Shown: in pieces, positions 7,194 to 64,000 of the stretch
How the letters are laid out: each line of letters starts with the position of its first letter
Position numbering within the stretch: the stretch's first letter is position 1
NCBI GenBank assembly: GCA_965200315.1
Contig: OZ241362.1
Coordinates: 5,295,246-5,359,245 of the forward strand
Direction: 5' to 3'
From: Candidatus Latescibacterota bacterium
Lineage (GTDB): Bacteria; Latescibacterota; UBA2968; UBA8231
Length of the DNA stretch: 64,000 nucleotides
Position numbers and translations under genes: made by a program
The notes under the pieces: generated by a model
Told to the model about the DNA's origin: nothing
The model's input: the letters and a program-made list of their open reading frames with translations, nothing else
Databases searched by the model: none

Positions 7194-7856
7194 ATGAGAC
7201 TGATCCTCGTAGGTTGCGAATACGCCGGTAAGACGACCTTGGCCAACGCCATCGTCGGTTGGCTCGAGCGCACCTTTGGCTCGTCGCGCACCTTTCACGA
7301 CCACTTCAGCCTGCCGTGCAACGAGTTCCCCGTAGAGGAGCAGGAGCAACTGCTGGCCCTCAGCCCGCGACTGAAGGAGATGTTCCAGCGCTACATGATG
7401 AACTACCACTTCCACGCCGCCTTCTACAGCGACCCGGACCACAACTTGGTGGGCTTCCACCTTGAAGAGGCCGTGTACGCGCCCTTGTACTACGGCTACG
7501 GGGGCCGCGGCGAGTACGCCGACCGCGCCGCCTTGGCGCGTACCTTCGACGAAGAGATCATGCAGTACGCGCCCGACACGGTGCTCGTGCTGCTGAGTGC
7601 GCGGCCCGAAGTCATTGCCCAGCGCATGCGCGAGCAGCCTCACGAGCGGCCGGTGGTGCAGGAAGAGGACATCGAGCACGTGTTGCAGCGCTTTGAGGAG
7701 GAATACCGCGACTCGCTCATCCGCAAGAAATTCGCCCTCGACACGTCCGACGCCACGGTAGAGCAGACCTTGGCTGAGTTCGCAGGAGAAATCAAAAAGC
7801 ACCTGAGCGAAGCCGACCGCTTGCGCCTGTTGGCCCACCAGAACTGGCCGAGTTAG
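7194..7856 (+). CDS. P-loop nucleotide kinase-like protein (thymidylate kinase fold)
   Basis: N-terminal GCEYAGKTT, lid-like PEVIAQRMR, C-terminal LDTS; AGGAGG RBS. Confidence 0.7.
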   Translation: MRLILVGCEYAGKTTLANAIVGWLERTFGSSRTFHDHFSLPCNEFPVEEQEQLLALSPRLKEMFQRYMMNYHFHAAFYSDPDHNLVGFHLEEAVYAPLYYGYGGRGEYADRAALARTFDEEIMQYAPDTVLVLLSARPEVIAQRMREQPHERPVVQEEDIEHVLQRFEEEYRDSLIRKKFALDTSDATVEQTLAEFAGEIKKHLSEADRLRLLAHQNWPS

Positions 7857-7859
7857 ACC

Positions 7860-9332
7860 ATGCCGCAGCCCTTTCTCGATTGGTATGGCGTATGGGCTGG
7901 CCAAGCTGGCATTGCAGGCGGCCAAGCTTGGGTGCAAGACCCGCCGGTGGGCGTCCGCTTAGCCGTGCAGGAGGCGCGCAAATCCCCGGTCTTCATCGCG
8001 CCGGAGCACCCTTGGGAAATGGGTGGCCTGACGCCGCAAGCGGTGCTTTGCGATGATGGTGTGCTGAAGATGTGGTACATCGCCCGCGGCGCTGGGGACG
8101 ACCAACCTCCCTTCATTGCGTATGCCGAGAGCGCGGACGGCTTTTGTTGGGAAAGACCGGCCTTGTATTTGCAAGAGTACGACGGCAGCACGGCCAACAA
8201 CCTGCTCTTCCGCTTCGGCGACTTTGGGCTGCAATCCGTGTTTGTGGATCCCGTGGCTCCGCCGGAGGCTCGTTACAAGGCCATGGCGCGCGATTCTATC
8301 ACCTATCACGAAGGTGTGCCGGTGCCCGCCATGACGCGGGAGCGCAAGTGGGCCATTCGCCGCGCTATGGCAGAGGCCGGCTACACGCCAGAGCAGCGGG
8401 CCGCCGCGCTGTATTTCGTCGGTTTGCTCAAAGGTGCGGTGTCGCCCGACGGCAAGCAGTGGGCCTTCTTGGAGGAGCCGCTTTTGAACGTGGGCCGCAC
8501 GGGGCTCGACAGCCACAACATCGCCGCGTACGACGCCGAAGCGGGTCAATACGTGGCCTATTTGCGCGGCCATCAGCATCGCCGCCGCATCGTGCGCCGC
8601 ACCGAGGGTGCGGAGTTCGGGAACTGGTCCCCGCCGCGCCCGGTATTCGCTACGGATCCGCAAGACCCCATAGACGACGACGTGTACGCGGCGGGTTATT
8701 GCCGCTATCCCCACGGCGGTTTTCACCTGATGTTCCCAGCCATGTACCACCGCTGGACAGCCACGGTAGATGTGCAATTGGCGACTAGCCGCGACGGCTT
8801 GCTGTGGAGCCGACCCGAGCGCAAGCCCATCATCTCCCCCGAGCCGGAAGGGTACGGCATGATGTTTGCCTTCCCGGAATTGGTCTCACTCGACTCGGAG
8901 ACGTGGGGCGCGATGTTCTTTGGGCAGTACGACTTGCACGACTGGGGAGAGCGGTATGATCCAGGCCGCCTTGGGGAATGGCGTTGGGCTACTTGGCAGC
9001 AGGATCGGCTGGTGGCTCTCGAAGCGCCGGTGGAGGGGCGCGTAACACTAGTTGAACGCGCGTGCGTCGGCCGCGAGCTGATGCTCAATTTTCAGACGCA
9101 AAAAGAAGGCGGCTGGATCAAGGCCGAGCTGGTCGAGCCGCCCTCTTCGCCGGCCGCGCCGGTGCGGGCCATAGCGGGCTTTGGGTTAGCGGAGGCGGAT
9201 GTGCTGGCCGGCGACGAGTTGGCTGGGGTGGCGACGTGGCGGGGCAGCAGCGATTTGTCGGCCTTGCGCGGTAGGCAGGTGGCCGTGCGCCTGCATCTGG
9301 CGCGGGCGAAGGTGTTTGCGGTGGGGATGTGA
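7860..9332 (+). CDS. Five-bladed beta-propeller glycoside hydrolase-like protein (GH32/43-like)
   Basis: Asp-box-like YAESADGFCW, SPDGKQW, TSRDGLLW; homologous in type to 36226-37677. Confidence 0.65.
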   Translation: MPQPFLDWYGVWAGQAGIAGGQAWVQDPPVGVRLAVQEARKSPVFIAPEHPWEMGGLTPQAVLCDDGVLKMWYIARGAGDDQPPFIAYAESADGFCWERPALYLQEYDGSTANNLLFRFGDFGLQSVFVDPVAPPEARYKAMARDSITYHEGVPVPAMTRERKWAIRRAMAEAGYTPEQRAAALYFVGLLKGAVSPDGKQWAFLEEPLLNVGRTGLDSHNIAAYDAEAGQYVAYLRGHQHRRRIVRRTEGAEFGNWSPPRPVFATDPQDPIDDDVYAAGYCRYPHGGFHLMFPAMYHRWTATVDVQLATSRDGLLWSRPERKPIISPEPEGYGMMFAFPELVSLDSETWGAMFFGQYDLHDWGERYDPGRLGEWRWATWQQDRLVALEAPVEGRVTLVERACVGRELMLNFQTQKEGGWIKAELVEPPSSPAAPVRAIAGFGLAEADVLAGDELAGVATWRGSSDLSALRGRQVAVRLHLARAKVFAVGM

Positions 9333-56004: not shown

Positions 56005-56350
56005 CGTAGGGCCGGTCGATGCCTTTGCCGATGGCGAGGTCCGCCGGGTCGAGGTTGCAGGGCGCGGCTTGGCGGTGGTGCGGCAAGGGGAGTCGTTCTA
56101 CGCGCTCCGCGATGTGTGCCCGCATCAGGGGGCGCGGCTGTCGGATGGGCGAGTGGGGGGCACGGCGCTGGCGCGGCATCCGGGAGACGAGATCGTCTTG
56201 GGGCGTGCTGGCGAGATTCTGAGCTGCCCGTGGCACGGCTGGGAATACGACATGCGCACGGGCCGCTCGCTGTGCGAGCCGGACAAGGTGCGGGTGCGAG
56301 TTTATTCGGTGTGGGTGGAGGCCGGGCGGGTGATCGTGGAGCTGGGCTAG
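55985..56350 (+). CDS. Rieske (2Fe-2S) ferredoxin
   Basis: CPHQG...CPWHGWEYD; start MALRRVDVG. Confidence 0.92.
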   Translation: MALRRVDVGPVDAFADGEVRRVEVAGRGLAVVRQGESFYALRDVCPHQGARLSDGRVGGTALARHPGDEIVLGRAGEILSCPWHGWEYDMRTGRSLCEPDKVRVRVYSVWVEAGRVIVELG

Positions 56351-56355
56351 AAAGA

Positions 56356-56380
56356 GGGCGTCCATAAGGGACGCCCCTAC
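56356..56380. repeat. GTAG-type REP-like hairpin, possible terminator
   Basis: gggcgtcc-ataag-ggacgccc-ctac directly after the Rieske stop, abutting the CRISPR repeat. Confidence 0.6.
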
Positions 56381-56471
56381 TTCAATGAGGCCGGGCCTTG
56401 CGGCCCGGAGATATGCACGCGCTTAAGGCGAGCAATTGATAATGCTAATGCTGCAATGAAGCTTGGCCGTT
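56379..56471 (-). CRISPR. Single-spacer mini-array: degenerate repeat, 35-nt spacer, one intact type I-G-like repeat
   Basis: Minus strand: ...acggccaagcttcATTGCAGC | attagcattatcaattgctcgccttaagcgcgtgc | atatctCCGGGCCgcaaGGCCCGGcctcATTGAAGT (36 nt, 56379-56414). The degenerate copy matches 15/21 at the 3' end. Confidence 0.85.
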
Positions 56472-56543
56472 GAGTAGTGGGCACTTTGAAAATTCCATCC
56501 TTATAAAAAGACAAAATTTCCGAAAAATTCAAACGGACCTAGG

Positions 56544-56572
56544 TTGACACGGTTCAGAGAGTGTTCTATTAT
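56544..56572 (+). promoter_or_regulatory. Sigma70 promoter of the cas operon
   Basis: TTGACA (56544-56549), 17 bp, TATTAT (56567-56572); AGGAG RBS at 56611-56615. Confidence 0.85.
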
Positions 56573-56577
56573 CAAGC

Positions 56578-56596
56578 TTAATTAGAATTATAAATT
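56578..56596 (+). promoter_or_regulatory. PAM plus partial protospacer of the mini-array spacer
   Basis: TTA + ATTAGaATTATaAATT versus spacer ATTAGcATTATcAATT. Confidence 0.8.
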
Positions 56597-56625
56597 AAAA
56601 TACAACACACAGGAGATTGCGAACT

Positions 56626-57888
56626 ATGGCTCTTGAGCTACAGACCTTGCAAAACGCGGTCGCCGGAACCGCTGCGGCTTTTCGTTGCACAACCGACTAC
56701 CAGCCGGCCGGCGGCCCCGGCGACAAGGTGTTCCCGCCTACCTACAAAGGCGGAGAATACGCGGTAGAAAACCGCAGAGATCCGAAGACCGGCGAGGTGC
56801 GACAGTGCGTTCTTTTGGACTCCGTGCAGTCGCAGGCCAACCGGATGGAGTTAGCGTTGCTGGAAGCACATCGCGCCGGAACGGTACAACTTCCTCTGAT
56901 CGTAACGCGCTTCGACCAAGAGGAACTGCTCAAGAAGTTCACGGTGACCAGCTTGGATGCCCCCCATCGCGTCGCGGACGCGCTGTTTCGCGACAGCCAG
57001 CTCAACGGCACAAAGTTCCGCGAGACGGAGCAGGGTCGAATACTCAATACTGCCGAGGTGCGGAATGCCACTGGCCTGTTTGGCCTGTGTCCGACCGCCT
57101 TGGTATTCGGCCTGTGGGATTCAACCGGGCCGCGGGGCGGCTTGGGATGCAAGTTCCAACGGGCGGTGGTGTCGGAGATCGTCGGGTACGACGCGGAGGC
57201 CGGCAGGAAGACGGCAAGCCGCATTGATCCGGCAGCCATTGAAAAACGTGCTGGTCCAGTCTTCAGAACGGAAGATGACGGCTGGACTCTGACGCCAGCG
57301 AAAGCAAAAAAAGACAGAAAGGGGAAGCCAGTGCTATATAAGCCTCGTCAGGGCCAGGATGTAGGGTATGACCCAAGTTCGGAAAAGGATGTACCTGACC
57401 AAGGTCGCCCGTCGGTGATCAATCACGGAAACGTCACGCCCAGTATTTCGGATGGTGGCTTCACTTTGTCAAAGGCACGGCAGACGACCACCTTGTCTCT
57501 GGCCGCACTGCGCCGCCTCCGCTTCCCACTCAACGGTGCAGCAGATTCCGCCTCCGCGGCCGATTTGGCTGCTCGCACTGCACTGGCCGCCTTGAGCCTC
57601 GCCGCCGGTACGCTAGCGCGAGTTGATACGGACCTTCGCTCCCGCTGCCAGCTTTTTGCCGAACAAGAGTCCGTTTGGGAGCTACTCGAGCACCCCGGTG
57701 AAAAACCGCGACAGTTCGCGCTCGCGCCCGATGCCGCATTCCAATTGCTGAACCAAGCGATCGCCGAGGCTAAAGCCGCAAATCTGCCTTGGGAAGGCAC
57801 AATCGAACTGACTCCATCGGAAGAATTAGTCGAACTGGTGCGACGCAGCCAAGAATTGCAGAGTGCGCCGGGAGCGGAAGAAGAATAA
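56626..57888 (+). CDS. csb1: Type I-G CRISPR Cas7 (Csb1)
   Basis: PAGGPGDKVFPPTY, LLDSVQSQANRME, APHRVADA, ALVFGLWDS, SRIDP, HGNVTP, LRSRC. Confidence 0.95.
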   Translation: MALELQTLQNAVAGTAAAFRCTTDYQPAGGPGDKVFPPTYKGGEYAVENRRDPKTGEVRQCVLLDSVQSQANRMELALLEAHRAGTVQLPLIVTRFDQEELLKKFTVTSLDAPHRVADALFRDSQLNGTKFRETEQGRILNTAEVRNATGLFGLCPTALVFGLWDSTGPRGGLGCKFQRAVVSEIVGYDAEAGRKTASRIDPAAIEKRAGPVFRTEDDGWTLTPAKAKKDRKGKPVLYKPRQGQDVGYDPSSEKDVPDQGRPSVINHGNVTPSISDGGFTLSKARQTTTLSLAALRRLRFPLNGAADSASAADLAARTALAALSLAAGTLARVDTDLRSRCQLFAEQESVWELLEHPGEKPRQFALAPDAAFQLLNQAIAEAKAANLPWEGTIELTPSEELVELVRRSQELQSAPGAEEE

Positions 57889-59645
57889 TGTTCGCCCTTG
57901 GCCTCCACTACCTGAACGGATGGGCAATGGCCGCGGCGGACGGGGCCAGAAAAGAGCAGGCCGAATGGCCGCCGCATCCCGACCGGGTCTTCATGGCGTT
58001 GGCCGCCGCTTGGTTTGAGACCGGCGAAGATCCCGCCGAAGGCGAAGCCCTGCGCTGGCTCGAAACCCTGCCACCCCCGGCGATTGCGGCCTCGGATGCG
58101 GACAGCCGCGCCGCTGTTGTTAGCTATGTGCCCGTGAATGACGCGAGTGTCAAACGCAAAATGCCCACTAGCGGAGACCTGAACAAACTAAAAAATGCTG
58201 GCTTGGCCTTACTACCCGAGTATCGGTTGCGCCAGCCCCGTGGTTTCCCGCTTGCCATCCCCCACGACCCGACGGTGCATCTGATTTGGCCAGAGGTCGA
58301 ATTAGGGGTGCATCGCGCCGCCTTGGAACAGCTAGCGGCTAAGGTCACGCACGTAGGACATTCGGCTTCCTTTGTACAGGCGTGGTTTGAGGAAGGCTGC
58401 AAGATCACCGCTACTTGGGAGCCGACCGAAGGAGTCGCCAAACACCGCCTGCGAATTCCCTCCACCGGGCGGCTTGACGGACTTATCCGAGCCTGTAATC
58501 GCGCCGCGTGGATGGAATATCACGACCTTTGCGCCGAGATCAAGCAAGCTGAAGCAGATCTCAAGGCGATGAAACACCCGCCCAGGGTGCCTTGGGAATC
58601 ATTCGCGGACGTGATTTTGCTGGCCGGAGAGCCCCAGACCAAGCAGCATCCCGCGTATGCTGGTGCAAAAACGGGCGATGCCGTGGCTGCGGCAAAGCAA
58701 GGTGGAAGTAGATCGAATAGCAGGCGAAGTCCTCGCGAGCAAAGACAGTACATCAAGGAAATGAAAGCGTGTTTGAAGGACCGTTTTCCCAATGGGGAAC
58801 CGACGACCCTGCGTCCGGTGCCAGGCCGCTGGCAGGGATATGATCAACCACCACAAGACAGTGACCCGAAAGTCCCCGGCTCGGTTTTCGATCCTCGGCT
58901 CATCGTCCTCGGCATCAAAGGCAAGCGCGTATCTCTGCCAGCGACGCTCAAGCTCACAGCGGCCCTACGCGGCTTATTGATGAGAGAGTGTCGTGAACAA
59001 CCGCCCCCCGAGTGGTTCAGCGGCCATCGTCGGGACGGCACCCCCACCGCCGAACCGCATCTCGCCCTGACGCCTCTCCCGTTTGTAGGCTCAGAACATG
59101 CGGACGGTCGAATTATGGGGCTAGCTATAGCCCTGCCGATGGGGGAGGCCGGGCACTGCCTCGAACCGTTTCTACGCGATTCTACCGGATTGCCGCGTGA
59201 ACATCCGTTGTTTGATGGCCAGTGGTTCGAGTGCGCTATTGCGCTGGAAACCCGCGAACGCCTGCCGAAAAACCTCGACTCGGATACTTGGACCCGAAAG
59301 TCGCGTATATGGGCGAGCGTGACCCCGGTGGTTTTGAACCAGCATTTCGATGGCAAGGACAAGTGGGCGCGGGCCGCCGAGAGTGTGAAGGACATGTGCG
59401 GACACATCGGTCTGCCGCGCCCACGCGAGGTCCTACTGCATCCGGTTTCGCTCGTTGAGGGCGTACCTCATGCCCGAGCCTATCCGCTGTTGACGCGCAA
59501 AAGCGACGGCGGACGCCGCAGCCACAACCACGCAGTAATCATCTTTGCGGAGCCCGTGCGCGGCCCGGTGCTCGTGGGGGCTGGCCGCTTCCGGGGATAT
59601 GGACTGTGCCGGCCGATGGATGAGCGAGGTGAGTACCGTGCCTGA
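57888..59645 (+). CDS. csb2: Type I-G CRISPR Cas5/Cas6 fusion (Csb2) with internal insertion
   Basis: EWPPHPDRVFMALAA, YVPVND, WASVTPVVL, terminal GPVLVGAGRFRGYGLC; TAATG overlap. Confidence 0.93.
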   Translation: MFALGLHYLNGWAMAAADGARKEQAEWPPHPDRVFMALAAAWFETGEDPAEGEALRWLETLPPPAIAASDADSRAAVVSYVPVNDASVKRKMPTSGDLNKLKNAGLALLPEYRLRQPRGFPLAIPHDPTVHLIWPEVELGVHRAALEQLAAKVTHVGHSASFVQAWFEEGCKITATWEPTEGVAKHRLRIPSTGRLDGLIRACNRAAWMEYHDLCAEIKQAEADLKAMKHPPRVPWESFADVILLAGEPQTKQHPAYAGAKTGDAVAAAKQGGSRSNSRRSPREQRQYIKEMKACLKDRFPNGEPTTLRPVPGRWQGYDQPPQDSDPKVPGSVFDPRLIVLGIKGKRVSLPATLKLTAALRGLLMRECREQPPPEWFSGHRRDGTPTAEPHLALTPLPFVGSEHADGRIMGLAIALPMGEAGHCLEPFLRDSTGLPREHPLFDGQWFECAIALETRERLPKNLDSDTWTRKSRIWASVTPVVLNQHFDGKDKWARAAESVKDMCGHIGLPRPREVLLHPVSLVEGVPHARAYPLLTRKSDGGRRSHNHAVIIFAEPVRGPVLVGAGRFRGYGLCRPMDERGEYRA

Positions 59646-62550
59646 ACTGAACGCCACAGACTTCGGCCCGTTTTTCTGCGAATTGTGGGGGTATCGGCCC
59701 TTTGCTTGGCAGCAGGCATTGGCTGATAGGGTGCTGGGTTGTCCAGAGGCACCTTGGCCCGAAGCCATTGCCTTGCCAACGGCAGCGGGCAAGACCGCGT
59801 GCTTGGATATTGCGGTGTTCGCGTTGGCGGCTCAGGCATCTCGGTTGGCTCGGAAGCAACCCATCACGGCACCGCGCCGCGTGTTTTTGGTCGTCGATCG
59901 GCGCGTCATCGTGGACCAAGCACACGAGCGGGCCAAGCGTCTTGCCAAGCGTCTTGCCAACGCTGAGGCCGGCATCCTCAAGCGCGTTGCGGACAACCTG
60001 TGCCAGATTGCCCACGGCGAGGCAGACGGATTTGAAGAGACACGGCCGCTGGCCGCTTACGCATTGCGCGGCGGTATGTATCGGTCGGAGGCTTGGATGC
60101 ACAGCCCGCTTCAACCCATGGTGGTAGCCTCGACCGTCGATCAGATCGGCTCTCGCCTGTTGTTCCGCGCCTATGGACGTGGCCCTAGCGCGTGGCCCAT
60201 AGCGGCGGGATTGATCGCCAACGACAGCCTAATTTTGCTTGACGAGGCGCACTGCGCCCAGCCGTTCTTACAAACTCTGCAAGCGGTGCGACGCTATCAA
60301 AAATGGGCGCATACGCCGCTTGGACGCCCCTTTTACCCGGTAGTGATGTCGGCGACTCCACCGCCGGGGATGGACTTATTCAAGGACCTATCCGAAGAAA
60401 GCCGCGATTCGGCCCACCCGCTCGGTCAGCGCCAACTAGCACATAAGCCTGCTATCCTGAAGGCAGTCAAAAAAGCCAAGGGAAAGCAGGCGACTAGTGT
60501 GCTGGCTAGGGCCTTGTCCAAAGCTGCCGAGGGGCTGATCAACAAAGAACGCCGTGCTATTGTGGTGTTCGTCAACCGCGTCGCCACGGCGCGGGAGACC
60601 TGTTGTCTGCTCCACCGCCGAGAGGACCTTGACGCCGTACTGTTGACAGGTCGGATGCGCCCCGTCGATAAGGACACTCTAGTTAAGCAACGCTTGAAAG
60701 CTCTCGAATCCGACCAGGCGGCCCAACGCATGTTGGCAAAGCCGGTGATTGTCGTGGCTACCCAAACCTTGGAAGTCGGGGCCGATCTCGATTTCGACGG
60801 CCTAGTGACCGAATGCGCTAGTCTCGACGCATTGCGCCAGCGTTTTGGTCGTTTGAATCGCATGGGGCGGAAGATTGACGCACGAGCGGTTATTGTCGTG
60901 CGCGACGACCAAGCAGGTGCCACAGTCGACGACCCTGTGTACGGCGAGGCACTTACTAAGACTTGGCATTGGCTCAACGAGCGCAAGGACGAAAATGGCG
61001 AGGTCGATTTTGGGATTGACCATCTACCGGACGGGAATTCTACGCTCAACGCTCCGTTCGACCCTGCCCCGGTAATGCTTCCTGCCCATGTCGACTGCTG
61101 GGCACAGACAGCACCGGAGCCACAACCTTCGCCCGATGTGGCTCCGTTCCTACACGGGCCTCGCAAAGGCGCAGCGGATGTGCAGGTGTGCTGGCGCGCC
61201 GATCTGGATTTGATCCGTGAAAAGGAGACCGCGCTGGAACTTCTGGCCTTGTGCCCGCCGAGCAGCAGCGAGACGCTTCCGGTCCCGATCGGCGTATTCA
61301 GGCGTTGGCTGGCCGGAGAGGATGCCGCAGACGACAGTGCCGATGTGGAAGGAATCAAAGCAGAGGACGGCATTAGCGGGAACGGTTCGTCCAATGTGGA
61401 GGAACGTCAGATAATCCGATGGTGGGGGGCTGAAACGGAAGCCGAACCCATCACAGCGGACCCCAAGGCGATTCGGCCCGGCGACGTCATCGTGATTCCA
61501 ACCAAGCATCAGGGGGCGACCGATCAACTCGGAGACTTGCCGCTGGATGCCGACTTGGACGTGGGAGATCGTGCCTATCGGATCGCCCGTGCCAAGCCCA
61601 TCCTTCGCTTGCACCCGGACCTAGTGGATGCTTGGCCGGATTCCGTTACCGCCAAAAAAACCGCTCGTGAGTTATTAAAAGATTTGGAACGAAAATACGA
61701 GGACGGTGAGCTTAACGATCCCTTGCGCGATCTTCTAACAGAGCTTTCCAATTCGCCCGAATCGTCTTGGCTATCGGAAGCCGCAAGCGAACTCTACGAG
61801 GAGTTTCCCGGGTCGAGACTGCACATAGTCGGCGGCAAAAGTATTGTCCTCGTCGGGCAGCAGAGTATACCGGAACTCACCCGCGAAGCCGACATCTTCA
61901 GCGATGAGGACGACGCTAGCACGTCTGGAACTGGGCGTCGCGTCAAATTGCTAAGTCACCTGCCCGGCGTCGAAGAAATGGCCCGTCGTCATGCCTCGGC
62001 CTGCGGCTTGCCTGAGGACTTGGTCGAGGCGATTGCCCGCGCTGGCCTGTTGCACGATTTGGGCAAGGCCGATCCTCGATTTCAGTCTTTGTTGCAGGGC
62101 GGCACTCGCTGGTTGGGCGGAGAACATCTCGCCAAATCCGCCGAAATGCCCAAGACCCGCGCTGCCCGCAATCGCGCTTATGCGAACTCTAAATACCCCA
62201 AAGGAGGTCGGCACGAACTGCTTTCAGTGCGCCTATCCGAAAGCGCGGCAGAGCTTTTGCCGGCAAGAGACGATCTGCGCGACTTGGTTCTACATTTGAT
62301 TGCCAGCCATCACGGCCGCTGTCGGCCGTTTGCGCCGGTGGTTGACGATCAGGGCGCGGATGTAGATTTCGAGTTGTGCGGCCAACGGACGCACTGGCCT
62401 GGTCCCACCGGCCTTGAGCGTCTCGATTCTGGCGTCGCGGATCGCTATTGGCGGCTGGTTCGACGCTATGGCTGGTGGGGCTTGGCTTGGCTGGAAGCCC
62501 TGCTGCGACTTGCTGATTGGCGGCAGAGCGAACTGGAGGAGACACAATGA
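59638..62550 (+). CDS. cas3: Type I-G Cas3 helicase-nuclease (C-terminal HD domain)
   Basis: PFAWQ, LPTAAGKT, VDRRVIVDQ, STVDQ, DEAH, SAT, QRFGRLNR, LHDLGKAD, SHHG, LRLAD; GTG after GAGGTG. Confidence 0.96.
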   Translation: MPELNATDFGPFFCELWGYRPFAWQQALADRVLGCPEAPWPEAIALPTAAGKTACLDIAVFALAAQASRLARKQPITAPRRVFLVVDRRVIVDQAHERAKRLAKRLANAEAGILKRVADNLCQIAHGEADGFEETRPLAAYALRGGMYRSEAWMHSPLQPMVVASTVDQIGSRLLFRAYGRGPSAWPIAAGLIANDSLILLDEAHCAQPFLQTLQAVRRYQKWAHTPLGRPFYPVVMSATPPPGMDLFKDLSEESRDSAHPLGQRQLAHKPAILKAVKKAKGKQATSVLARALSKAAEGLINKERRAIVVFVNRVATARETCCLLHRREDLDAVLLTGRMRPVDKDTLVKQRLKALESDQAAQRMLAKPVIVVATQTLEVGADLDFDGLVTECASLDALRQRFGRLNRMGRKIDARAVIVVRDDQAGATVDDPVYGEALTKTWHWLNERKDENGEVDFGIDHLPDGNSTLNAPFDPAPVMLPAHVDCWAQTAPEPQPSPDVAPFLHGPRKGAADVQVCWRADLDLIREKETALELLALCPPSSSETLPVPIGVFRRWLAGEDAADDSADVEGIKAEDGISGNGSSNVEERQIIRWWGAETEAEPITADPKAIRPGDVIVIPTKHQGATDQLGDLPLDADLDVGDRAYRIARAKPILRLHPDLVDAWPDSVTAKKTARELLKDLERKYEDGELNDPLRDLLTELSNSPESSWLSEAASELYEEFPGSRLHIVGGKSIVLVGQQSIPELTREADIFSDEDDASTSGTGRRVKLLSHLPGVEEMARRHASACGLPEDLVEAIARAGLLHDLGKADPRFQSLLQGGTRWLGGEHLAKSAEMPKTRAARNRAYANSKYPKGGRHELLSVRLSESAAELLPARDDLRDLVLHLIASHHGRCRPFAPVVDDQGADVDFELCGQRTHWPGPTGLERLDSGVADRYWRLVRRYGWWGLAWLEALLRLADWRQSELEETQ

Positions 62551-63471
62551 CCGCAAATGAATCAACTCCGGGGCTTTTGCTGAACGGGCTCGACGGCAGC
62601 AATCCGCTGGGATTTTTGGCGGCGGTTGGTACGTTGCGGACCGCGACGCAGGCAGGTTGTGTGAGTTGGGAGTTAAAATGGGAAAAACAGGACGAGCAAT
62701 GGTCTCCTGTTTTGCTCGGGGACGAGGCGTCTACAGCAGATAATTTGCTCGAACTGCTCATGCCTACCTTAAAGGCAATGCAGGACGCCCCGGCCCTATC
62801 TTTCGGCAAAAATCTGAATGTCGATCCAGAAAAATTTCGTACGGTAGCTAAAGACGCACAGGCTCGAGCTACTTTCGCCGACCATCGCGACGCAGATTTT
62901 ATTGCGGCCTTTGGCTGCGAGAGGCCTTTCTACTTCCGACGATAAAACTATTCAGGACACTGCGCTGCGGACTATGAGCGGAGCGGGACATCAGCACTTC
63001 TTAGGTTCTATGCGAACCCTTGCAGAAAAAACCACAGCAGAACATCTGCGGGCCGCGCTATTTCAACCGTGGCAGTACACAGATAAGAAGTTTAGCATGC
63101 GATGGGATCCTATTGATGATCGCCGATATGCTCTGCGTTGGGAGGATCCTTCCGCCGCCCCCACGCAAACCGTGTGGGGGGCTAACCGCCTCGCCGTAGA
63201 GGCCCTTCCTCTTTTTCCGACCGCGCCAGTAGGGCCACAGCTTCACACTACTGGTTTTTCCCAGCGACGCGGTAAAGATGTTTTTATGTGGCCGATATGG
63301 GTTGTTCCCTTGAGCTTGGATATCGTGCGGTCGCTACTCAGCCTAGACGAACTTCAGAAATCTCTTCCAGACCGAAACCGCCTGCTGGCTATGGGGGTAG
63401 CTGAGATATACTGTAGCCAGCGTTTTACTAAGGGTAAGTTTCGCAACTTTGCCCCAGCTCATCCCGTCTGA
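62547..63471 (+). pseudogene. cas8: Type I-G Cas8g-type large subunit, split by a +1 frameshift near 62920
   Basis: GLDGSNPLGFLAAVG...FIAAFGCE in one frame; IQDTALRTMSGAGHQHFL...RWDPIDDRRYALRW...GANRLA in the next; lies between cas3 and cas4/1. Confidence 0.8.
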
Positions 63472-63495: not shown

Positions 63496-64000
63496 ATGAC
63501 CCACGACCACCAACTCACCCTCCCCTTGGCCCCGCCGCCAACCGATGCGAACACGCCGCTTGTCCCGGCCCGCATGGTCAACGAGTGGGTCTATTGCCCG
63601 CGCTTGGCCTATTTGGAATGGGTGGAAGGCGAGTGGGCCGAAAGTGGCGACACGGCTGCCGGTCGCAGGCCTCCGCCGCTCGAAAACAGCCCCAAGTGCC
63701 CGCGCTGTTCGCTGGCTGGCATCTGCCTGCCGGACGAGACCAACCTGTTCCGCAAGGGGTATCCGCCGCGTCCGCTGAACCCGTCCGACGATCCGGCTCT
63801 TCCGCTTTACGTGCAAACGCCGGGAGCGCGGCTGCGCAAAAGCGGCGAGCGCTTGGTGGTGGAGACCAAAGAAGAAACGGTGGAGATGCCTCTGATCGAC
63901 GTTTCTCAAGTCGATCTGTTCGGCCCGGTCTCGGTAACTACACCGGCTCTGCACGCGCTGATGAACGCTGAGATTCCAGTGTCGTGGTTTTCCACAGGTG
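63496..64000 (+). CDS. cas1: Cas4-Cas1 fusion with deleted Cas4 core; runs off the right edge
   Basis: Hand translation: ...PARMVNEWVYCPRLAYLEWVEGEW...DTAAGRR|PPPLENSPKCPRCSLAGICLPDE...PLYVQTPGARLRKSGERLVV...IPVSWFSTG. Confidence 0.92.
   Translation, partial: MTHDHQLTLPLAPPPTDANTPLVPARMVNEWVYCPRLAYLEWVEGEWAESGDTAAGRRPPPLENSPKCPRCSLAGICLPDETNLFRKGYPPRPLNPSDDPALPLYVQTPGARLRKSGERLVVETKEETVEMPLIDVSQVDLFGPVSVTTPALHALMNAEIPVSWFSTG

Follow-up and report, generated by a model that had tools for sequence, protein, structure and literature searches.

A probable CreR-type regulatory mini-array at the promoter of a type I-G CRISPR-Cas operon in a Latescibacterota bacterium, and the co-variation of its guide with its target in related loci

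The question raised by this locus is why a single spacer-like stretch, enclosed by two repeat-like units, lies on the minus strand beside a type I-G CRISPR-Cas operon, and what is meant by its partial match to the promoter of that operon. The locus was found in Candidatus Latescibacterota bacterium (assembly GCA_965200315.1, contig OZ241362.1), of which a stretch of 64,000 nucleotides (nt), positions 5,295,246 to 5,359,245 of the forward strand, was analyzed; this stretch is called the window, and positions are those of the window unless the contig is named. The element is very probably a CreR-type regulatory mini-array of the type I-G system. The anatomy of the element, its unique site, the protospacer adjacent motif (PAM), the position of the site at the promoter and the co-variation of guide and target are established here. 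An initial annotation, made from the letters of this stretch, had proposed RNA-guided autorepression of the cas genes; this interpretation is supported by the likeness to the main-array repeat and by the guide-promoter co-variation, its mechanism being drawn from other subtypes.

The mini-array comprises a 36-nt hairpin repeat (R2), a 35-nt pseudo-spacer and a degenerate repeat (R1) with an 8-nt handle, all of which had been claimed by the initial annotation and are present at 56379-56485 of the minus strand (Table 1). The comparison that it had suggested with a main array beyond the window edge was made with an array that opens the same contig (positions 1-838 of the contig, on the cas strand, comprising 12 repeat tails and, between them, 11 spacers of 36-38 nt). 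The repeat of this array agrees with R2 in its hairpin architecture and at 17 of its last 18 nt. Over the full length R2 and the main repeat are 24/36 identical with different stems, and both show the same geometry of a hairpin, then 4 nt, then an 8-nt handle; each folds into a guanine-cytosine (GC) hairpin with a 4-nt loop, at -16.2 kcal/mol for R2 and -16.9 kcal/mol for the main repeat. The R1 handle is one base apart from the handle of the main array. The element is accordingly composed of two repeat-like units derived from the genome's own CRISPR repeat around one spacer-like stretch. R2 itself was matched once in the window (up to 3 mismatches allowed) and once across the genome of 5,359,245 bases (up to 10 substitutions allowed), and the Rfam family CRISPR-DR16 (RF01330) matches exactly 56379-56414 of the minus strand with 23.3 bits (E = 0.0091), which is below its gathering threshold of 35. 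The GC content of the pseudo-spacer is 19% in the first 16 nt and 65% in the rest. As separate observations, the GC-rich distal half of the pseudo-spacer forms a hairpin in some of the mini-array loci described below (z down to -3.6) and none in others, from which no claim is made; and in DNA contigs from the same habitat (runs X1 and X4) another sequence replaces the spacer of the window after the R2 hairpin (56409), so that there seems to be a co-occurring strain or relative with the same repeat and another pseudo-spacer.

Only one promoter-like site was predicted in 56300-56700, namely the TTGACA-17-TATTAT promoter of the cas operon, which stands just 5' of the TTA-flanked target as the initial annotation had described it, with 11/12 matches. 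The claimed match of guide and target was reproduced in full: spacer nt 1-16 are identical to 56581-56596 at 14/16 positions with mismatches at positions 6 and 12 alone, and the pairing goes no further (3/19 identical over spacer positions 17-35). The target starts 8 nt past the -10 element. [quoted passage not shown] In genome-wide pattern searches this site was the sole match for all the patterns used, the loosest of which required TT, any base and then spacer nt 1-11 without regard to position 6. The spacers of the main array gave a best match of 24/32 or less in their own genome. The initial annotation had also proposed a search for a full-length protospacer of the pseudo-spacer; none was found in phage and plasmid collections, only chance pieces of 17-19 nt (E 0.4 or worse), and this is a weak test as such hosts are hardly covered by these collections. 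Two minor features of the target region may be mentioned. An 11-nt inverted repeat (91% complementary) joins 56455-56465 in the R1 tail with 56573-56583, from the -10 element to the target start, and on the RNA strand the 7 nt preceding the handle are the same as the 7 nt preceding the PAM region, which may be either a vestige of the origin of the spacer-target pair or chance. A perfect TATAAT hexamer lies within the target on the minus strand (56587-56592), and no -35 element can be recognised for it; should the mini-array be driven from this hexamer, a Cascade bound at the site would repress its own guide too.

Related loci were fetched by Cas7g. Among taxonomic relatives 7 of 41 genomes matched; the genome loci are the best 80 of 379 matching stretches in one-genome-per-species contigs, and the metagenome loci are the best 80 of 413. 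The genome set contained 83 upstream regions (the window, the 80 loci, and G004 and G014), which are 82 distinct loci, L075 being G014. The R1-spacer-R2 unit was present in 16 loci of this set, in 14 of them on the strand opposite to cas7g. The spacers were excised by coordinates and the best match of their nt 1-18 was sought within 2.5 kilobases (kb) or less on both strands, with mismatch positions unconstrained. In 12 of the 16 the top match (13-16 of 18) lay on the strand of the cas genes, in the stretch that separates the unit from cas7g; these loci (the window, L013, L029, L034, L039, L041, L045, L049, L056, L080, L085 and L087) were tabulated, and the PAM is TTN in 11 of them and CTA in one.

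The co-variation of spacer and promoter in homologous loci, which the initial annotation had named as a check, was found and forms the decisive evidence. At those of positions 1-16 which are not multiples of three, guide and target pair in 132/132 cells of the 12 tabulated loci, even as the spacers themselves differ between loci (their mean identity where they pair is 0.51, and each such position shows 2-4 different bases). A non-consensus base is present on both sides in 42 of the 132 cells, and therefore guide and target co-vary. When spacers were compared with the regions of other loci, the 110 foreign pairs reached 13 of 18 or less (mean 10.9), as against 13-16 of 18 for the own pairs. A blind scan was also done independently of the handle, with matches at 12/12 positions that are not multiples of three, a TT PAM and a target at most 700 nt from cas7g; it gave 11 loci in which an I-G handle (at least 6/7 positions) precedes the matching word, L072 being new, along with a few unrelated duplications and one true array. 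The self-target is present in 13 of the 82 genome loci (the window and 12 others), and the metagenome set (80 loci, more distant) gave 9 more loci in which a handle-preceded word partly matches a TTN-flanked site near cas7g, the orientations being varied. In 8 loci including the window the target begins 2-19 nt past a predicted -10 element; in L013, L072 and L080 it adjoins the -35 element or overlaps it. All 16 R2 units form strong hairpins with differing stems when folded singly; consensus folding of the 16 units gave no structure, the hairpins having been placed in two registers by MAFFT. The mini-array is thus conserved among related loci, while its spacer and the target change in concert. 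As to the hosts, the Cas7g relatives (L013-L092, 60-81% identity) are from genomes labelled Nitrospira, Gammaproteobacteria, Acidobacteria, Latescibacterota, Binatia, Chloroflexi, Entotheonella and others, several of which bear sponge-related names, and this spread of similar sequences points to wide horizontal transfer of this I-G variant.

We infer the transcription, processing, binding, repression and sensing as follows. The minus strand would be transcribed from R1 through R2, and Csb2 would bind the R2 hairpin and cut 4 nt past the hairpin base. The geometry of R2 agrees with such cutting: in Thioalkalivibrio, according to the available text of the structural study, Csb2 cuts 4 nt past the hairpin base and leaves an 8-nt handle (PMC9638904). 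The 5' end of the RNA would be set at the 8-nt handle of R1, by Csb2, by Cas7g or by the transcription start, and the resulting RNA, similar to a CRISPR RNA (crRNA), would be loaded into I-G Cascade. Cascade would then read the TTA PAM, and spacer nt 1-16 would pair with the template strand along the target at the cas7g transcription start. The I-G rules which the initial annotation had stated, a TTN PAM and a flipped sixth base, are in print for Thioalkalivibrio, where the same text gives the TTN PAM, the 8-nt handle and a 5+1 pattern, each sixth base of the guide being flipped out (PMC9638904). The pairing would end after about 16 nt, so that the R-loop would be partial and Cas3g unlicensed. 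Bound Cascade would block RNA polymerase and hold down the transcription of cas7g-csb2-cas3g, and the effector would therefore repress its own operon. By analogy with CreR, from which the sensing of crRNA load or anti-CRISPRs is carried over, this repression should be eased when ordinary crRNAs compete for the Cas proteins or when an anti-CRISPR disables Cascade.

Several points weigh against a working regulatory mini-array, and some of them would fit an alternative which we consider unlikely, that the locus is a relic: the architecture would be that of a regulatory mini-array, non-working in this genome, with the R1 hairpin lost, no mature RNA and the cas operon partly decayed. The 5' cut at R1 is the weakest step, and Csb2 may not make this end because the R1 of the window is without a stable hairpin; its best fold has just -3.8 kcal/mol, whereas the R1 of most relatives has a weaker hairpin, absent here, that ends about 4 nt before the handle. 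The Cas3-extension gene is a single open frame of 318-363 amino acids in 3/3 same-genus relatives and is split into two frames here, either by a frameshift, in which case the system may be in decay, or by an assembly indel. No promoter-like site was predicted on the minus strand in 56300-56700. The contigs of two RNA libraries cover the flanking genes and leave 56410-56491 uncovered, and contigs cannot show transcripts; they stop at 56397/56398 and resume at 56511 (X5) or 56611 (X6), a gap that is not readable as absence, and such libraries may contain DNA. Among the relatives, four units are without a convincing own target (a weak match in L025, none in L038, L053 and L092), and the two loci closest by Cas7g, G004 and G014, lack the unit in the 2.5 kb upstream. 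The loci moreover share ancestry, so that counts across them, such as the 132 pairing cells, overstate independence. Against decay stands the pairing itself, as 14/14 expected positions still pair and both mismatches fall exactly at flipped positions; decay at random would not have left the pairing positions untouched. The promoter, the PAM and R2 have stayed intact, Cascade and not Cas3 is what repression requires, and a preprint reports in its title that Csb1 is also able to process pre-crRNA in I-G (10.1101/2022.08.19.504415).

Two other explanations are much less probable than a relic. The element could belong to a CreTA-type addiction module, in which the mini-array RNA chiefly represses a toxin behind the targeted promoter and the loss of Cascade kills the cell. 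CreA/CreT is the founding example of such RNAs, and seven relatives (L013, L029, L034, L045, L056, L085 and L087) have a small open reading frame (ORF) of 54-92 codons between the targeted promoter and cas7g, for which nothing above cut-offs was found in Pfam and NCBIfam; these ORFs form two sets, one of L013, L029 and L034 and one of L045, L056, L085 and L087, and the latter set of four shares a helical-looking motif (18-40% identity). They are, however, co-directional with cas7g and their toxicity is only putative, and in the window, which departs from most relatives both in this and in the lost R1 hairpin, no toxin gene was found under the targeted promoter among ORFs of at least 25 codons, the 66 nt between target and cas7g start being without any ORF of that size. 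We therefore hold an addiction module very improbable for this genome. Still more remote is that the element is the orphan end of an old array whose spacer resembles an AT-rich promoter by chance. The PAM-proximal 16 nt are indeed AT-rich, as their low GC content shows, and with unconstrained shuffles 22 of 5000 spacers reach at least 14/18 anywhere in the 189-nt intergenic stretch. With a TT PAM and all 14 positions outside 6 and 12 matched, on the other hand, 0 of 200,000 shuffles yield a site; the real site is unique in the genome, and the same relation recurs with other sequences in the 12 more genome loci and 9 metagenome loci, so that chance resemblance is already contradicted by the comparative data.

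The positions of the mismatches deserve a separate account. In the 12 tabulated loci there are 30 mismatches in positions 1-16, of which 18 are at 6 and 12, 12 are at 3, 9 and 15, and none is at the other 11 positions. The published I-G structure, in its available text, accounts for positions 6, 12 and 18 only (PMC9638904). A naive binomial test for the mismatches at 3, 9 and 15 gave 9e-9. A comparison split by PAM, independent of the choice of loci, was done with all handle-preceded words having a 13-16 of 18 match in both locus sets, duplicates removed: with a TTN PAM (26 pairs) 57/74 mismatches are at multiples of three, and with any other PAM (81 pairs) 120/347 are. Fisher's test of TTN against other PAMs gave 2e-11 overall and 9e-6 for positions 3, 9 and 15 alone, and kinship of the loci means that all these tests on mismatch positions overstate independence. 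The signal at 3, 9 and 15 is weaker in the distant metagenome set. At the free positions A predominates in the target and C, T or G in the guide, a bias which looks like drift at unconstrained sites. In-frame stop codons, present in the L049 target and in both spacer and target of L085, rule out a coding origin of the pattern.

A three-nucleotide periodicity was reportedly seen by Jung et al. in 2017 for the binding of I-E Cascade in vitro. Here either Cascade has no need of one base in three, or selection favours mismatches in mid-segment as a means of tuning the binding. It is a tentative suggestion, which we regard as possible and rather doubtful, that the guide-promoter pairs record a reading rule of this I-G Cascade with a period of three nucleotides and not of six alone, in which positions 3, 9 and 15 tolerate mismatches as readily as 6, 12 and 18 and the others are held. 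If this is true, the Cascade of this clade binds DNA in 2-nt steps split by an unread base, or tolerates a mid-mismatch in each 5-nt segment, including seed position 3; the specificity of an effector would then be readable from natural regulatory mini-arrays without experiment.

The design is known from other subtypes, and what is new here is an I-G instance supported, at the level of sequence, by co-variation. The promoter repression by CreA/CreR-type RNAs which the initial annotation had mentioned is published: the available text of Liu et al. (10.1101/2023.03.10.532045) describes CreR RNAs that repress cas promoters in I-B, I-E and V-A, with competition by ordinary crRNAs and relief by anti-CRISPRs, and that of Shmakov et al. 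(PMC10120712) describes validated repression by a regulatory mini-array in I-F1. For I-G the mechanism is only hinted at in these texts, as against established for I-B, I-E, I-F1 and V-A. Manual finds of creA-like elements for I-U, the old name of I-G, are given in a supplementary figure (10.1101/2023.03.10.532045); in the mini-array survey I-G appears, in the text available, as a table entry only (235 loci, fraction 0.04 with a mini-array), and targets are given for I-E, I-F1, I-D and I-B (PMC10120712). I-G goes unmentioned in a 2026 preprint on phage cr-like RNAs. Our literature search found no experiment on I-G regulatory crRNA-like RNAs, and the supplementary lists of the CreR and mini-array papers may hold I-U/I-G examples.

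As far as the published descriptions of CreR available to us extend, the element is similar to it in having two degenerate repeats around a pseudo-spacer in a cas intergenic region, in the pairing of the PAM-proximal part with the promoter of an effector gene beside a correct PAM, and in a partial complementarity by which binding without cleavage is expected. It differs from the CreR of I-B, I-E and V-A in belonging to I-G, with Cas7g and the Cas5-Cas6 fusion Csb2, in that the first regulated gene is cas7g and not cas8, and in being known from sequence. With the mini-arrays of the survey, as its available text presents them, it shares standalone repeat pairs conserved in related loci and a target in the effector promoter, and some of those have cargo genes between mini-array and effector gene, like the relatives with small ORFs (PMC10120712); the share of 13/82 loci with a self-target in this clade is far above the fraction listed there for I-G. 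The CreA of haloarchaeal I-B CreTA is likewise a crRNA-like RNA with a degenerate first repeat and a short seed match that guides Cascade to a promoter, and unlike it the window has no toxin gene behind the targeted promoter. The I-G Cascade of Thioalkalivibrio sulfidiphilus, from the text available, resembles that of the window in the 36-nt repeat, the cut geometry and the TTN PAM, and the mismatches at 6 and 12 fit its flipped bases (PMC9638904). The window differs from it in the gene order cas7g-csb2-cas3g-extension; no match to the Cas8g (Csx17) model was found among the 6 cas-side ORFs scanned, smaller ORFs being outside the scan, and no chain of the Protein Data Bank was matched by the window Cas7g in a search by sequence.

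Of all type I systems I-G has been studied least, and the window with its relatives offers ready natural pairs of guide and promoter, with their PAMs, for testing I-G autorepression. Within one I-G clade that has been transferred widely, the CreR design is common. The mismatches allowed in these loci form an evolutionary record of the guide positions which Cascade needs for binding, and this record could inform the design of I-G gene-silencing tools.

Table 1. Coordinates of the mini-array, its target and the cas genes in the window
Feature	Position	Strand	Description
GC hairpin, 8 bp (stem 8, loop 5)	56356-56376		between Rieske-ferredoxin stop and R2
R2, 36-nt repeat-like unit	56379-56414	-	7-bp GC stem, GCAA loop, 4 nt, 8-nt handle-like tail
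Pseudo-spacer, 35 nt	56415-56449	-	PAM-proximal (5') end at 56449
R1, degenerate repeat	56450-56485	-	21/36 identical to main repeat
R1 handle ATTGCAGC, 8 nt	56450-56457	-	closing 8 nt of R1
Sigma-70-type cas promoter TTGACA-17-TATTAT	56544-56572	+	11/12 matches
PAM TTA (fits TTN)	56578-56580	+	directly 5' of target
Pseudo-spacer target, non-template strand	56581-56596	+	at or just past expected transcription start
cas7g (csb1)	56647-57888	+	first operon gene under targeted promoter; TIGR02570, 74 bits; relatives align from residue 1
csb2 (Cas5-Cas6 fusion)	57789-59645	+	expected processing enzyme; TIGR02165, 291 bits
cas3g	59545-62550	+	TIGR02621, 736 bits
Cas3-extension family gene (NF049934), two frames	62517-63471	+	break near 62921-62923
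cas4g/cas1g fusion	63496-63999	+	partial match; gene cut by window end, which is the contig end

The type I-G assignment was made by NCBIfam, with equivalog or exception models above cut-offs for Cas7g, Csb2 and Cas3g. Instead of a matched Cas8g, it is the Cas3-extension family protein (NF049934) that follows cas3g, and its two frames overlap and cover profile positions 1-120 and 120-299. The hairpin between the Rieske-ferredoxin stop and R2 may serve as terminator of both converging transcripts; it was not called in terminator prediction because a T run is absent after it.

The genome is a single contig, the start of which cuts a CRISPR repeat and the end of which cuts cas4/cas1, so an assembly gap falls between the main array and cas4/cas1. 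One 38-nt spacer is present twice in the main array (contig 325-362 and 472-509). After the last repeat of this array the 3' part of the Rieske-ferredoxin gene (window 56174-56296) recurs as a 123-nt copy with 91.9% identity (contig 861-982); the full gene is at one side and the fragment at the other, and thus the CRISPR-cas locus is bracketed as after a cassette insertion. A second array (contig 7732-8210) has an unrelated 36-nt repeat and a terminal chimeric unit, the 3' part of which is the tail of the I-G repeat. The genome has at least 4 more arrays, one of which extends over about 18.5 kb at 129082-147680.

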